NCBI GenBank assembly: GCA_965205155.1
Contig: OZ242033.1
Span: 2,299,572-2,363,571, forward strand
Source of the DNA: Candidatus Aldehydirespirator sp.
GTDB lineage: Bacteria; Actinomycetota; Acidimicrobiia; Acidimicrobiales; Aldehydirespiratoraceae
DNA length: 64,000 nucleotides
Direction of reading: 5' to 3'
Shown here piece after piece: positions 3,859-25,502 of this stretch; position 1 is the first letter of the stretch, and each line of letters begins with the position of its first letter. The position numbers were made by a program, and so were the translations under genes. The notes under the pieces are model-generated. The model was given only the letters and a program-made list of their open reading frames with translations, did not search any database and was not told where the DNA came from.

Positions 3859-3907
3859 TCCCGCTCTTGTTCGCTGCGCTCACGGGCCGCTCGGGCCACG
3901 GCCTCGC
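3859..3907 (-). repeat. Dispersed ~50-nt core repeat, copy A (sense on minus strand)
   Basis: The reverse complement reads GCGAGGCCGTGGCCCGAGCGGCCCGTGAGCGCAGCGAACAAGAGCGGGA, near-identical to the copies at 9743, 12117, 21399, 21451 and 25452. Confidence 0.9.
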
Positions 3908-3933
3908 TCAGAGTCTCGCGAGACACACATGAA

Positions 3934-4305
3934 CTAGCGCCCGCCCGCTCGGCCTCTGAGCCGGTGGCGGTTGGCCGCGATGAGGGCGTAGGCCGGACGC
4001 GCCAGCCAGCACAGCGGAGGGTGGATGATCAACAGTCCGGCCGCGGCCCAGATCCCACCGGCCGCGACCAGGGATCGCCCGATCGCCTCGGCGCCGCGTG
4101 ACCGCCGTGTGCCGCTGCCGCGGTCGTCGATCCACCACACCGCGGCCCGTACGTCAGGCTCGGATAGGCCCAGCCGGTCCAGTTGCAGCGACTGCCACGG
4201 CTCGACCCGGGCATCGGCGGGCAGGTGGGCCTCGATCCAGCGAGCCGACCGGATGCAGAAGCCACACTCGCCGTCGTAGACCAGCAGCACGCCTCCATTC
4301 TGCAT
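3934..4305 (-). CDS. Thiol-disulfide oxidoreductase DCC family protein (DUF393)
   Basis: This is the C-terminal 123 aa of track ORF 3934..5673, starting at ATG 4305: MQNGGVLLVYDGECGFCIRSARWI, the family's DGxCxxC motif. The rest of that 579-aa ORF is antisense to ychF. Confidence 0.75.
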   Translation of the reverse strand: MQNGGVLLVYDGECGFCIRSARWIEAHLPADARVEPWQSLQLDRLGLSEPDVRAAVWWIDDRGSGTRRSRGAEAIGRSLVAAGGIWAAAGLLIIHPPLCWLARPAYALIAANRHRLRGRAGGR

Positions 4306-4403
4306 GCACACGTCCCGCCTGAAACGGAATTGGCCGCGGTGGGTGCCCGTTTGGGCGTTCTCGGCTGCCAATTCCTGTAGGTCCGGCGGTAGCCTGTTTC
4401 GCC

Positions 4404-4493
4404 ATGTCCAAGCGCACGAGCAAGCGCCGGGCCAAGGCTCGCCGATCGAAGGCGAACCACGGACGCAAGCCCAACGCCGGCCGGAACAGCTAG
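4404..4493 (+). CDS. Candidate 50S ribosomal protein bL37 (29 aa, actinobacteria-specific)
   Basis: Not in the ORF track (too short). ATG 4404 to TAG 4491-4493 gives MSKRTSKRRAKARRSKANHGRKPNAGRNS. The K/R-rich peptide with KANHG+KPNA resembles mycobacterial bL37 as I recall it. Confidence 0.6.
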   Translation: MSKRTSKRRAKARRSKANHGRKPNAGRNS

Positions 4494-4548
4494 ACAGCTG
4501 AACGGCTGCGCGGCCGGCCGGTGTGGCCGGTAGGACACGGAGCCCGCA

Positions 4549-5622
4549 ATGGAGCGATTCGGATTCGTCGGGCTGCCCAATTCGGGCAAGACATCGCTGC
4601 ACAATGCTCTGGCCGGCGGCGACGCGGTCGCGGCCCGGCACGCCTTCTCCACGAAGTCGGCCAATGTGGGGGTGGCGAGGGTTCCCGACGCGCGCCTTCT
4701 CCCGCTGGCGGAGATGAGCGGCAGCCGTCGCACGGTGCATGCATCCGTGCAGTTCACCGACATCGGCGGCCTGGTATCGGGCTCGAACCGGGGCGAGGGA
4801 CTGGGCAACGCCTTCCTGGGGCACATTCGTGACACCGACGCGATCGTGTATGTGCTGCGTGCCTTTGCCGATCCCGACATTGCCGGCGATGACGACCCGC
4901 TGAACAGCCTCCGGGTGCTCGAGACGGAGCTGGCCCTGGCCGACCTCGACAGTGCCGCCCGCCAACTCGACAAGCTTGCCCGGGCTGCCAAGGGTGATCC
5001 CTCGCTCCGGGCTGGTCGCGACTTGCTGGCGCGGGTGATCGGGGTGCTCGAAGACGGCGTGCCGCTGTACCGAGCCGGATTCGACGACGGCACCAGGTCC
5101 GGTCTTCGCCCGTTCTTCCTGATCACCAACAAGCCGGTGCTTGCCGTGGTCAACATCGGAGAGGATCAGATCGAAGCCGCAGACGACTTGGCCCAACCGG
5201 TACGGGCCGAGCTGGGCGACGCGGAGGTCATGGCGCTGTGCGTGCAGCTCGAGGCTGAGGCGGCTCAATTCGATGAGCCGGAGCGGCCCGAGATGCTGGC
5301 CGCCCTGGGCCTGGGCAGCGGCGCTCTGGACCGGTTCCTGACCGTCGCCTATCACCTGCTCGGACTCCGGACCTTCTTGACCACGGCCCCCAAGGAGAGT
5401 CGGGCCTGGACCTTCCGGGCCGGAGCGTCGGCGGTGGAATGCGCCGGCGCCGTCCATTCCGACATTCGGCGCGGCTTCATCCGAGCGGACACCATCCGCT
5501 GGGACAAGCTGCTGGAGGCTGGTTCCTGGGTCGCGGCCCGCGATCAGGGCCTGGTGCGGTCCGAGGGCAAGGACTACCGCGTGGCCGACGGCGATGTGCT
5601 GGAGTTCAAGTTCAACGTCTGA
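4549..5622 (+). CDS. ychF: Ribosome-binding ATPase YchF
   Basis: MERFGFVGLPNSGKTSLHNALAG P-loop, FTDIGGLV G3 motif, and C-terminal TGS-like end RSEGKDYRVADGDVLEFKFNV. Confidence 0.95.
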   Translation: MERFGFVGLPNSGKTSLHNALAGGDAVAARHAFSTKSANVGVARVPDARLLPLAEMSGSRRTVHASVQFTDIGGLVSGSNRGEGLGNAFLGHIRDTDAIVYVLRAFADPDIAGDDDPLNSLRVLETELALADLDSAARQLDKLARAAKGDPSLRAGRDLLARVIGVLEDGVPLYRAGFDDGTRSGLRPFFLITNKPVLAVVNIGEDQIEAADDLAQPVRAELGDAEVMALCVQLEAEAAQFDEPERPEMLAALGLGSGALDRFLTVAYHLLGLRTFLTTAPKESRAWTFRAGASAVECAGAVHSDIRRGFIRADTIRWDKLLEAGSWVAARDQGLVRSEGKDYRVADGDVLEFKFNV

Positions 5623-5705
5623 GAGGCCGATGCGGACCGTCCCCTGACTGCGTGACTGTGGTTGAGCGGCCACGGCTGCTGACGTACCCGCACTTTCTCA
5701 TTGCG

Positions 5706-23276: not shown

Positions 23277-23383
23277 GATCGATGTCCGCACCGACGGACG
23301 CCGAGGGACTCAAGCGGAGCGGCGCCCGACTGTGATGTCGAGCCGGGTTCGGCGCGGCGTCGTCAACGACCGGAGGTTCGCCG

Positions 23384-24685
23384 GTGAGTCCCATCAAGGC
23401 AGTCCGTGCTCGTGAGGTGTTCGACTCGCGCGGCAATCCCACCGTGGAAGTCGATGTCGTGCTGGAGTCGGGCGCTAGCGGCCGGGCCATGGTCCCGTCG
23501 GGTGCGTCCACCGGAGCGTTCGAGGCCGTCGAGTTGCGCGACGGCGGCAGCCGCCTACGAGGCCGGGGCGTCCTGAACGCGGTCGCCAACGTCACCGGCG
23601 AACTGGCCGGCGCGGTCCGGGGCCTCGACGCCGGAGACCAGCGGGCCGTGGACGCCGCCCTCATCGATGCGGACGGCACCGACGGCAAGGGCCGGTTGGG
23701 TGCAAACGCCATTCTCGGCGTGTCGCTGGCCGCCGCCCGGGCCGCGGCCGCAGAGTTCGAGGTTCCGCTGTGGCGCCACGTCGGAGGGGCCAACGCCCAC
23801 GTGCTGCCGGTGCCGATGTTGAACCTGCTCAACGGCGGGGCGCACGCGGGCAACAACGTCGACTTCCAGGAGTTCATGGTGGTCCCGGTCGGCGCCGCGT
23901 CCTTCTCCGAGGCGCTGCACTGGGGCGTCGAGACTTATCACGAACTGTCGGCGGTGCTGAAGGGCCGGGGCCTGTCGACCGGACTCGGCGACGAGGGGGG
24001 GTTCGCCCCGGATCTCGGGTCGAACGCCGAGGCGCTGGCCCTGCTGGCCGAGGCGACCGAGCGCACCGGCCTCGGGTTGGGGGACGACGTGGGGTTCGCT
24101 CTGGACGTGGCGTCGACCGAGTTCTTCGAGGGCGGTCGGTACGTGCTGGCCGGCGAGGGCCGGACACTGGACTCGAGCGAGATGGCGGCCGCGCTGGAGC
24201 GCCTGTGCGACGAGTACCCGATCCTGTCGGTCGAGGACGGCATGGCCGAGGAGGACTGGACCGGCTGGGCGGAGCTCACCGCCGCGGTGGGGGAGCGTGT
24301 CCAGCTGGTGGGAGACGACCTGTTCGTCACCAATTCCGAGCGGCTGGCCCGGGGGATGCGGGGTGGCGTGGCCAACGCGATCCTGGTGAAGGTCAACCAG
24401 ATCGGCTCGCTCACCGAGACTCTCGACTGCGTCGAGCTGGCCGTCCGCGGCGGGTACGGAGCGGTGATGTCGCACCGCAGCGGCGAGACTGAGGACACCG
24501 TGATCGCCGATCTCGCCGTGGCCACCAACTGCGGGCAGATCAAGACCGGGGCTCCGGCCCGCAGCGATCGGGTCGCCAAGTACAACCAGCTGCTGCGCAT
24601 CGAGGAGCAACTGGGCGAGGCGGCCTCCTATCGCGGCCGGGCGGCGCTGGCGCTGGGGACCAACCAGGAAGCGGCTGGATCGTGA
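23384..24685 (+). CDS. eno: Enolase (phosphopyruvate hydratase)
   Basis: [51 protein letters not shown]. Confidence 0.97.
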
Positions 24686-24996
24686 TGAAGTCGGCTTGGT
24701 GGCACCGGCTGTTGCTGGCTGGCCTGGTCGTGGCCATGGCGGTCGCCGCCGCGTTGCTGGGAGCGTCGTCGGTGCGCACCTGGATGGACCAGAACGCCCA
24801 GCAGCGGGAGGCCGAGAGCCTCGGAGCCGAACTGGATGCCCGGATCGCCATCCTCGAGGGCGAGATCTCCAGACGGACCAGCGACGACGGGGTGCGGCGC
24901 GAGGCGCTCTGCTTCGGCCCCTACGTGGAGCCCGGAACCGAGGTCTACGCCGTGATGGGCCTCGAAGGCTGCGTAACGCAGTCCGGCGACCCCTAG
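24682..24996 (+). CDS. FtsB/DivIC-like septum formation initiator family protein
   Basis: 104 aa with one N-terminal TM helix ([19 protein letters not shown]) and a coiled-coil segment. It holds the position after eno seen in other actinobacteria. Confidence 0.65.
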
Positions 24997-25008
24997 CCTT
25001 CGGATTCT

Positions 25009-25413
25009 GTGCCCGCCCATCGGTTCAGTGTCAAGGTCCGGTTCTATGAGCTCGACCCCTACGGCCATCTCAACCACTCCGCCTACATCCAGTTCTTCGA
25101 GACCGGACGGATCGAGCTGCTGGAGCAGGTCGGGATGGACCTGGAGTCCTTGGCGGCCCGCGGATACCGGTTCGTGGTTAATCGCATCCACACGTCGTTC
25201 GATCGTCCGGTGCACGCCGGCGACACGGTGACGGTCGAAACGGAGGTCGTGGAGATGAGGCGGGCCTCGTCGACTTGGCGCCAGCGTCTGGTGCGCGACG
25301 GTGAGGTGGTGGCCCGCCAGGAGCTGAGGTCCGCCATCACCGACAACGACGGCAAGCCGGTGCGGGCCCCCGAGTACTTGGCCGAGGCGCTGGCCCCCTA
25401 CTTCGTGAGATAG
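25009..25413 (+). CDS. Acyl-CoA thioesterase (4HBT/YbgC-like hotdog fold)
   Basis: VRFYELDPYGHLNHSAYIQFFETGRIELL is the typical 4HBT N-terminal catalytic region. 134 aa. Confidence 0.75.
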   Translation: MPAHRFSVKVRFYELDPYGHLNHSAYIQFFETGRIELLEQVGMDLESLAARGYRFVVNRIHTSFDRPVHAGDTVTVETEVVEMRRASSTWRQRLVRDGEVVARQELRSAITDNDGKPVRAPEYLAEALAPYFVR

Positions 25414-25451
25414 CGCGGGTAGGCACAAGCCTGTCGCGTTGCTAGGGGGTG

Positions 25452-25502
25452 TCTCCCGCTCTTGTTCGCTGCGCTCACGGGCCGCTCGGGCCACGGCCTC
25501 GC
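25452..25502 (-). repeat. Dispersed ~50-nt core repeat, copy E (inverted relative to flanking genes)
   Basis: The reverse complement reads GGCGAGGCCGTGGCCCGAGCGGCCCGTGAGCGCAGCGAACAAGAGCGGGAGA. The insert is flanked by 11-bp direct repeats GTGAGATAGCG at 25405 and 25545. Confidence 0.9.

Follow-up and report, generated by a model that had tools for sequence, protein, structure and literature searches.

A 64,000-nucleotide stretch of the genome of Candidatus Aldehydirespirator sp., an actinobacterium of the class Acidimicrobiia (contig OZ242033.1, positions 2,299,572 to 2,363,571; in the following, the window), carries at five loci a repeat element built around a conserved 49-nt core. We consider it likely that this element is a non-autonomous, non-coding and composite interspersed repeat, which is restricted to one bacterial lineage and resembles both MITEs (transposable elements of the miniature inverted-repeat type) and the BOX elements of streptococci. 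The family is apparently undescribed and occurs in an uncultured and little-studied lineage, but its kind is well known among bacterial repeats, and on present evidence no new type of genetic system is involved.

The element was initially noticed as a dispersed repeat of about 50 nt in six copies (hereafter the original prediction). In the window, which has a G+C content of about 70%, the core GCGAGGCCGTGGCCCGAGCGGCCCGTGAGCG(C/A/G)AGCGAACAAGAGCGGGA occurs exactly at 3859-3907 (minus strand), 9743-9791 (plus), 12117-12165 (plus) and 25454-25502 (minus), versus an expectation of 0 in 100 shuffles. An invariant 21-mer, GGCCCGAGCGGCCCGTGAGCG, occurs six times versus 0.07 expected and includes a diverged tandem pair (21-mer starts at 21410 and 21454). 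Likewise, an nhmmer search with the family profile over the 64 kb returns exactly six matches (E 2e-38 to 2e-8) and no seventh with E<1 anywhere in the window. The exact cores, the 21-mer count and the profile thus agree on the six predicted positions, and the profile also bears out that no copy lies beyond 25.5 kb; the count, however, corresponds to five loci, since two cores form the tandem pair. The repeat of about 50 nt is real as well, but it is only the conserved middle module of a longer element, because a second conserved motif, (A/G)GAGGCCGAGC, is found 13-51 nt 5' of the core at every window locus.

In its full form, the element spans about 140-155 nt and consists of a 5' arm beginning with Y-N-A-GAGGCCGAGC, the 49-nt core, a linker of about 28 nt and a 3' arm. 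The 3' part of about 50 nt is present in about half of the copies and ends with ..CACCTATCCGCG(N5-8)CTCT(N)AG, its inner part (..CACCTATCCGCG..) being the inverted complement of the 5' arm. Other copies consist of the core in tandem, or of the core with a 5' arm only. At least four arm types are found around the one core, and the distance between the 5' motif and the core falls in discrete classes:

22 nt from motif to core: short arm
26 nt from motif to core: the form in Ca. Poriferisodalis (GAGGCTGAGCCG...)
49-50 nt from motif to core: short-type long arm (type I)
60 nt from motif to core: long-type arm (type II)
no 5' motif: core only

Tandem arrays of the core alone have a period of 44-45 nt, those of arm-plus-core units periods of 64 nt and 94 nt. 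The arms, for their part, also enclose unrelated interiors or almost nothing (L011 4936-5030, plus strand; L033 2240-2333, with the element on the minus strand and its start at offset 5668 of the reverse complement; L002 6179-6220; L numbers are our handles for the sequences compared), and they therefore form a scaffold that exists independently of the core. In addition, a core sub-variant in which CCCGTGAGCGCAGCG is changed to CCCTCAGGTCGCAGCG and the in-core TGA is lost was observed in four different genomes (L008 3151-3201; L031 48-100; L053 513-565, minus strand; L138 13267-13319). At L094 7153-7235, a core is split by an AT-richer insert of 83 nt, which has a short inverted repeat of its own (CCAAATCTG / CAGATTTGG) and is flanked by an 8-nt direct repeat (CCCGTGAG); judged by these features, it is a different small mobile element nested in the repeat.

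The family extends well beyond the window. When species-representative genomes were scanned for the exact 27-nt core centre, it was detected in at least 113 eight-kb blocks from at least 47 assemblies, all of them metagenome-assembled genomes (MAGs) of Acidimicrobiia and many of them from sponge studies. Among the blocks listed, the carriers include Ca. Aldehydirespirator and Ca. Poriferisodalis as well as several bins named after sponge studies, and two named families are among them, Ca. Aldehydirespiratoraceae and Ca. Poriferisodalaceae. In 133 copies, the core is 78-99% conserved also at positions that the search pattern does not cover, the flanks much less. The exact 27-mer is absent in 37 of the 179 cores detected in the loci compared, and the cores of Ca. 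Poriferisodalis show 1-6 mismatches in 49 nt, or 1-4 where the usual 5' end of the core is kept. The core centre has no match in collections of phage, plasmid or viral contigs, on which ground a phage or plasmid origin was rejected, and the searchable literature yielded neither the sequence of the element nor repeats of these taxa. The window copies are therefore neither the only ones nor placed without bias: many further copies exist, with a positional bias described below, and no match to a described repeat or non-coding RNA family was found in Rfam or the literature, in keeping with the original prediction, which had recognized no named family. By contrast, the clustering of copies in the housekeeping part of the window is not a property of the family, as the syntenic region of 17-21 kb contains no core in one relative (L135) and cores at five loci in another (L139).

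Insertion of these elements can be followed by comparing the window with syntenic relatives, which we found via homologues of RsmA (88-91% identical) and of a thioesterase; a metagenome search with an 881-aa molybdopterin enzyme returned only relatives of at most 52% identity and no source of empty sites. The window holds the following copies and associated features:

3854..3958, minus strand: copy A, type II (long-type) 5' arm and core 3859-3907 without 3' arm (profile positions 2-97)
5623..5630, plus strand: probable solo 5'-arm remnant GAGGCCGA, directly after the ychF stop (TGA 5620-5622)
9690..9838, plus strand: copy B, full length with core 9743-9791, between metG and tatD (profile positions 3-139)
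12076..12169, plus strand: copy C, diverged 5' arm and core 12117-12165 without 3' arm (exact core, profile match)
21387..21453, plus strand: copy D1, short 5' arm (GAGGCCGAGCTTG), diverged core and 6-nt linker, at the mfd 3' end
21454..21492, plus strand: copy D2, core-only tandem unit, 44 nt from D1, holding the current mfd stop (TGA 21469-21471)
25405..25544, minus strand: copy F, full-length type I (short-type) with core 25454-25502 (profile positions 2-138)
25545..25555, minus strand: 5' member of an 11-nt direct repeat, CGCTATCTCAC, that flanks copy F (3' member 25405-25415)

According to Pfam, the five loci are flanked by a DCC1-like gene (A), metG and tatD (B), rsmA and a convergent molybdopterin oxidoreductase gene (C), mfd and a peptidyl-prolyl isomerase (PPIase) gene (D), and genes for a thioesterase and a MoxR-like ATPase (F). 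Copy A lies inside the last codons of the DCC1-like gene, where alignment with the empty sites of L135, L136 and L137 sets its limits at CACCGGCT on one side and GGCCCCCG on the other; it swaps the native tail PGPRAAAP for RGRAGGR, with a new stop (TAG 3934-3936) within its arm. Copy B sits directly 5' of the original metG stop (TGA 9839-9841). MetG reads 10 codons into its arm and now stops at 9720-9722, and the empty sites in L135-L139 read ..GGGCC/TGAGGGG (the slash marks the insertion point), with a 4-nt junction ambiguity, GGCC. Copy C, just 5' of the original rsmA stop (empty site in L138: CCGCG/TTAGTCAGGATCC), adds to RsmA a tail of about 21 residues that ends with GRGRGPSGP and a TGA in the core (12142-12144); the protein has 287 aa in the window versus mostly 264-267 aa in close homologues. 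At the mfd end, the D locus as a whole (21387-21492) consists of a short arm and two cores, and 13 nt of native sequence are lost there; the 3' junction of D2 is ambiguous, because the empty site, too, contains the GTGAC that follows D2 (21493-21497). The prediction that the element itself provides the last codons and the TGA of rsmA (ORF, i.e. open reading frame, 11281-12144) and mfd (ORF 17971-21471) is thus correct. Copy F, finally, lies between the thioesterase and moxR-like genes, antisense to both, and its 3' terminal segment overlaps the thioesterase stop (TAG 25411-25413, plus strand). Its direct repeat reaches about 18 nt if two differences are allowed, and the comparison of its own flank with its own 3' end gives 14, one of the top two scores in 64 copies. 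A similarity downstream of the core had also been predicted for several copies; in B and F it is the genuine 3' arm, but in A it is native flank, which is present in the empty site of L135 as well.

The relatives that share the first four of these loci differ from the window, and from each other, as follows:

L135: without copies A, B, C and D
L136: without copies A, B and C; mfd junction with three 64-nt units and the same 5' junction as in the window
L138: without copies B and C
L139: without copy B; a full-length element in opposite orientation at the rsmA/xdh junction

At the mfd junction, the window has one short-arm unit and a 44-nt unit versus the three 64-nt units of L136, and the sequences of these orthologous copies are about 16% different. 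L139 has elements that the window lacks after ychF, upstream of tRNA-Gln and after prs, the last being a core-only insert of 44 nt at a site where L138 carries a short arm and a core variant. Exactly at the ychF stop, L139 has a full-length element; GAGGCCGAGCGG persists there in L136 and L137, but L135 and L138 show no trace of either. The window's GAGGCCGA at this position is too short to be significant by itself, and it is probably a solo remnant of a 5' arm. At the site of copy F, five relatives with a 91-93% identical thioesterase have 35-72 nt between the genes. L142 and L145-L147 have 59-72 nt there and no intact element, L140 and L141 only a GCGCTCGGCCTC remnant in the window's orientation, and L145-147 what looks, from the letters, like a 5'-arm remnant in the other orientation. 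Further filled and empty pairs are found among the scan blocks (L105/L065, L071/L107, L098/L014, L110/L080). Presence and absence are thus polymorphic at orthologous sites, as for MITEs, with independent insertions or orientations distinguishing lineages at the rsmA/xdh, thioesterase/moxR, prs and ychF junctions. Since syntenic relatives lack copies or carry different ones, we conclude that elements of this family were gained, lost and re-gained at the same junctions. Three further RsmA orthologues (P0028, P0046, P0061) end with RRPSE, QRPSR and QRPSG, which corresponds to the frame-2 translation of AGAGGCCGAGCGG, the first bases of the element; these C-termini suggest additional independent insertions at the rsmA stop in other lineages.

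In 123 copies, the base directly before GAGGCC at the 5' end (position -1) is A in 80%, and a pyrimidine stands at position -3 in 92%; in 52 of these copies a stop codon overlaps the 5' junction, as CTAG, TAAG or TGAG. With genes placed by a simple gene caller based on G+C at third codon positions (GC3), the stop of the upstream gene on the same strand ends at positions 0 to +2 of GAGGCC in 18 of 53 copies. The empty sites tell the same: the insertion adjoins the original stop in copy B, in copy C (CCGCG/T(T)AG), in L105 compared with L065 (GCCAAGC[TAG]...[TAG]CGCG, a 3-nt TAG repeat) and at ychF in L139 (GTCTGA/GAGGCC). Where an element landed a few codons inside a gene, it replaced the C-terminal tail and supplied a new stop. 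The predicted location at gene ends, mostly in sense orientation, therefore holds, but family-wide the sense bias is modest: between co-directional genes, 33 copies are sense and 15 antisense (p=0.013). The gene-pair contexts as such, 48 co-directional, 11 convergent and 10 divergent, occur in ordinary proportions.

Full-length copies moreover have terminal inverted repeats. Across 23 such copies (22 pairs), 73% of the cells pair, versus 29-52% with a slid partner; this feature is confined to the full-length forms, and window copies A, C and D are without a 3' arm. The best-preserved copy (L017) is predicted to form a single long hairpin (z -4.7), whereas window copies B and F, though of full length, are decayed and do not exceed shuffled sequences in folding (z -1.4 and -0.7), and there is no fold signal for the core alone (z +0.37 and +0.60, either strand) or for arm-plus-core forms. 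To describe the core as non-palindromic, as the original prediction did, is hence correct for the core by itself, but incomplete for the element, given the inverted repeats of about 22 nt at the ends of full-length copies. Compensatory change between the arms is weak (73.2% paired versus 72.1% shuffled), and RNAalifold on the 23 copies yields a covariation term of -0.55 with mostly invariant pairs; we therefore attribute the complementarity of the arms to a shared consensus and not to a selected RNA helix. In the GC-rich background, the duplex energy of the arms does not discriminate (own -23.8, swapped -22.5, unrelated -20.8 kcal/mol), and column-wise pair counts were used in its place. A helix common to all linkers was dropped, as the hairpins seen by eye in subfamilies are not shared across 45 gap-free copies.

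Several other identities were considered and rejected. A described RNA family has no relevant match: at the gathering threshold, Rfam 15 finds only two tRNAs and ASdes in the whole window, and for copy B at E<=10 three chance-level matches (13-18 bits versus gathering scores of 40-98 bits). Although the two most variable positions of the core are third positions of one frame, a coding core was discarded, because the other variable positions show no 3-nt periodicity and translation of the core as part of host genes uses another frame. In the full-length consensus, only one frame is open throughout, and it is without a start codon; with 94-155 nt, the elements are short and non-coding, as are MITEs. 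A scan for terminator and promoter consensus gave chance-level results (2 terminator-like features versus 2.6 expected), on which either function was rejected. Lastly, the element is not a clustered regularly interspaced short palindromic repeat (CRISPR) array, because tandem cores abut with a linker of 5-6 nt instead of spacers, and most copies are solitary and dispersed.

Among known repeats, the closest architectural counterpart is BOX. In Streptococcus pneumoniae and S. suis, according to PMC3049150, BOX elements are composed of boxA - boxB(n) - boxC, with partly complementary ends and a middle module that is absent, single or in tandem, and in S. suis either boxA/C or boxE/F ends surround the same boxB. 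Both families thus have ends around a middle module of 0 to n tandem units, the number of which varies between strains, and arms without a core occur here too; the arm types around our single core, at least four, recall the alternative ends of S. suis. For neither has a clear mobilizing enzyme or target duplication been established, and both create or modify ORFs. They differ in that conservation is highest in the middle module of the present element, which also inserts with one arm, and in that the element's 5' end is strongly tied to stop codons. The likeness is architectural only; homology in sequence is unlikely, given an actinobacterial host of 70% G+C on one side and low-G+C Firmicutes on the other.

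With MITEs such as Correia/NEMIS, ERIC, RUP and Nezha, the element shares a length of 100-160 nt, lack of coding capacity, multiple copies, terminal inverted repeats, a predicted long hairpin, intergenic or gene-end sites, variable presence between strains and decayed copies. Classical MITEs leave a target duplication of fixed length, such as TA for Correia, and share their ends with an identifiable insertion sequence (IS); neither a fixed duplication nor, in the scan blocks, an IS with matching ends was found here, and conservation is higher in the internal core than in the inverted repeats. While MITEs are described as AT-rich in PMC3049150, the repeat element is GC-rich like its host. Features shared with repetitive extragenic palindromic (REP) sequences, their mosaics (bacterial interspersed mosaic elements, BIMEs) and the REPIN-RAYT systems (REP doublets forming hairpins, with REP-associated tyrosine transposases) are the extragenic position at gene ends, a high and lineage-specific copy number, inverted units and the absence of a regular target duplication. 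The REP unit, however, is an imperfect palindrome of 20-40 nt with a conserved head of the GTAG type, whereas the conserved unit here is a 49-nt non-palindrome and only the two arms are mutually complementary. Mycobacterial interspersed repetitive units (MIRUs) also have an actinobacterial host; they consist of units of 40-100 nt in variable tandem number, lie at gene junctions in operons, mostly in gene orientation, and overlap stop codons. The repeat element resembles them in host, tandem variation, gene-junction location, orientation and stop overlap, a likeness by description, but MIRUs have neither arms nor inverted repeats and are not known as composite. Rickettsia palindromic elements (RPEs), in turn, are insertions tolerated within coding sequence that add peptide segments, a trait in which the repeat element resembles them; they insert in frame inside genes, whereas the repeat element, with stops in all three frames, only replaces C-terminal tails.

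We propose that an enzyme whose gene lies elsewhere in the genome moves these elements in trans, or did so until recently, and that for it the core and the GAGGCCGAGC motif would be the parts that the mobilizing machinery must recognize. Only copies that keep both would propagate, while copies left in place would decay at about the neutral rate. Recognition of the conserved blocks by a trans-acting factor is suggested because copies in place decay, yet the core and GAGGCCGAGC hardly vary between two families; elements exchanged horizontally by symbionts living together may be an alternative or additional cause of this conservation. The individual window copies are probably passive passengers, although a copy, if transcribed, may contribute structure at the 3' end or a short peptide tail.

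In keeping with a non-coding element without a linked enzyme, the ten largest recurrent gene families, assigned by Pfam, in the at least 113 scan blocks (0.87 Mb) include no transposase; the ORF clusters there consist of paralogues of common types, such as ABC transporters and dehydrogenases. A DUF222-HNH family in four blocks was tried as the linked enzyme and set aside, the one member checked (L106) not being adjacent to an element. A number of observations weigh against the proposal. No autonomous partner or transposase with matching ends was found in these blocks, and a pattern search for long arm-bounded elements matched everywhere and was uninformative. Mobilization in trans is for these reasons something that we infer rather than observe. 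Furthermore, three of the five window loci are without a 3' arm, and hence without inverted repeats, yet they are discrete insertions, and the better conservation of the core than of the inverted repeats is the reverse of what is typical of MITEs. A classical MITE moved by a DDE transposase leaves a target duplication of fixed length. Here, no fixed-length duplication was found in a comparison with relatives too diverged for a strict test, and the junctions are heterogeneous: they show a 3-nt TAG repeat, ambiguities of 4-5 nt (GGCC, GTGAC) or direct repeats of 11-14 nt (window copy F, L016, L098), and some targets lost 4-13 nt. Comparing the 5' flank with a copy's own 3'-terminal segment gives a score of at least 9 in 8 of 64 copies versus 1.2% of swapped pairs, so some duplications are real, but neither general nor fixed in length; small differences at the junctions may be later changes, because the empty-site relatives are 7-12% diverged at the protein level. 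Core conservation, moreover, is partly ascertained, since an exact 27-mer was the condition on which every locus entered from the genome scan, and a figure of about 10^2 copies per genome only extrapolates the density in the window and in L135-L139, roughly one locus in 12 kb.

The fixed-duplication DDE route is thus not supported. A more specific and, in our estimate, rather unlikely extension would be that the core and GAGGCCGAGC form the recognition module of a chromosomally encoded system that inserts modules at stop-codon junctions without a fixed duplication, in at least two sponge-associated families of Acidimicrobiales. Candidate routes for such a system are single-strand (HUH-type), RNA-templated and template-switch mechanisms.

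It also appears improbable that the element is a cis signal selected by the host, that is, a protein binding site or an mRNA 3'-end element kept at gene ends to stabilize, terminate or attenuate transcripts. The near invariance of the core across two families, the gene-end placement and the sense bias of 33:15 would agree with such a role, and effects on transcripts are documented for REP, ERIC, BOX and Correia elements (PMC3049150). Close relatives, however, do without the element at the same junctions, orthologous copies have diverged by about 16%, and all gene-pair configurations are used in ordinary proportions (48/11/10). Moreover, terminator-like features are at chance level, neither core nor arm-plus-core forms show a fold signal, and arm covariation is weak (73.2% versus 72.1%). 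A cis function is possible for individual copies; the data do not need it, and it fits poorly with free presence and absence.

A REP/REPIN-type system is, in our view, quite unlikely; in it, a RAYT, i.e. a Y1 transposase of the IS200/IS605 type, would move the two arms, as inverted units of the REP kind, in the form of single-stranded hairpins. Under this explanation, one would expect the lack of a fixed target duplication, the inverted arms with their G(G/A)(G/A)TAGG motifs, the copies at gene ends and the preference for a Y-N-A context at the 5' boundary. Insertions with one arm (A, C, D, L105) or of the core alone (L139, prs), however, would form no REPIN hairpin, the best-conserved part is the non-palindromic core, direct repeats of 11-14 nt accompany some copies, and no Y1-transposase gene is among the ten largest recurrent families of the 0.87 Mb in scan blocks.

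Similarly little probability attaches to a spread without any dedicated transposase, by template switching, microhomology-primed repair, ectopic gene conversion or a reverse-transcriptase route. Such processes would account for the microhomologies at junctions (GGCC in copy B, GTGAC on the 3' side of D, GGAGCGG on both sides of the core-only 44-nt insert in L139), for direct repeats of variable length and small target losses, for the GAGGCCGAGC end common to all forms while the other end stops at discrete points, and for solo GAGGCCGAGC remnants. At 70% G+C, however, GC-rich microhomology of 4-6 nt is expected by chance, and the discrete subfamilies have different arms and are not simple truncations; with empty-site relatives 9-12% diverged in their RsmA protein, the junction differences may also be of later origin. 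A further idea, which sees in every copy a gene for a small non-coding RNA or a leader like that of a riboswitch, is largely refuted and practically untenable, since the strong predicted hairpin of L017 and the probable transcription of elements inside operons stand against the lack of Rfam matches even at E<=10, the covariation term of -0.55, the lack of a consensus linker helix across subfamilies, copies in both orientations and within coding 3' ends, and window copies that fold no better than shuffles.

Beyond the repeat element, the window has several other features. Positions 46052-50068 (minus strand) encode a 1338-aa RCC1-repeat protein (PF13540 in 10 stretches; WD40_RLD), which accounts for large 111-nt repeat families at 46.0-50.3 kb; eukaryote-like repeat proteins of this sort are often reported in sponge symbionts. 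Its gene is flanked by those of a serpin-domain protein (43789-45816, minus strand; PF00079, E 2.5e-67) and a Uma2-type putative endonuclease (50722-51810, minus strand), and a 776-aa ORF nearby (41089-43419) has no Pfam match. At 32.5-40.3 kb, the window is 85-90% identical to L077 (SB0673_bin_3), the alignment ending about 40 nt after a tRNA-Leu gene (window 40194-40330, L077 7740-8000); beyond it, L077 has a repeat element, whereas the window has unrelated sequence followed by the RCC1/serpin region. This point of divergence may be the boundary of a genomic island. As a filled and empty pair, L077 was unusable, because the L077 locus stops within the element and its flank is divergent beyond the tRNA-Leu gene. 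The ASdes small RNA match (6048-6115, minus strand; 42.6 bits versus a gathering score of 40) lies antisense within a gene with fatty-acid desaturase orthologues, which are found in L135 and L136 (PF03405). Three paralogous segments (52332-52410, 52727-52805, 60373-60451) encode a hydrophobic N-terminus (..GLTTLEWLLIVAAVAGLAA..) that, to our eyes, resembles the leaders of Flp-type pilins; with the further paralogous repeats at 51.2-55.6 kb, these segments point to duplicated gene sets for a pilus or secretion system. Finally, there are in-frame tandem repeats of 24 nt in a gene at 2458-2595, and a 62-nt tandem duplication (89% identical) at 55749-55872 (55.75 kb).

For the organism, the immediate consequence of these insertions is that DCC, MetG, RsmA and Mfd carry C-termini derived from the element. 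Because the element changes annotated gene ends, annotation and comparative studies will misread such tails as lineage-specific extensions. On the other hand, the copies are ready-made strain markers, since they are insertion-polymorphic and their tandem number varies between close relatives, and they are likely to break the assembly of symbiont MAGs. For the family, the features of interest are a non-palindromic core shared across bacterial families, the exchange of arms around it and a placement at stop codons that rewrites the C-termini of housekeeping proteins. A nearly identical core in two families, combined with lineage-specific arms, raises the question of which trans-acting factor reads the core and whether it is exchanged among symbionts. 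If a stop-junction insertion system did exist, MITE-like repeats of bacteria would have a mode of mobilization that is as yet undescribed for them, and co-resident symbionts possibly a means of exchange.

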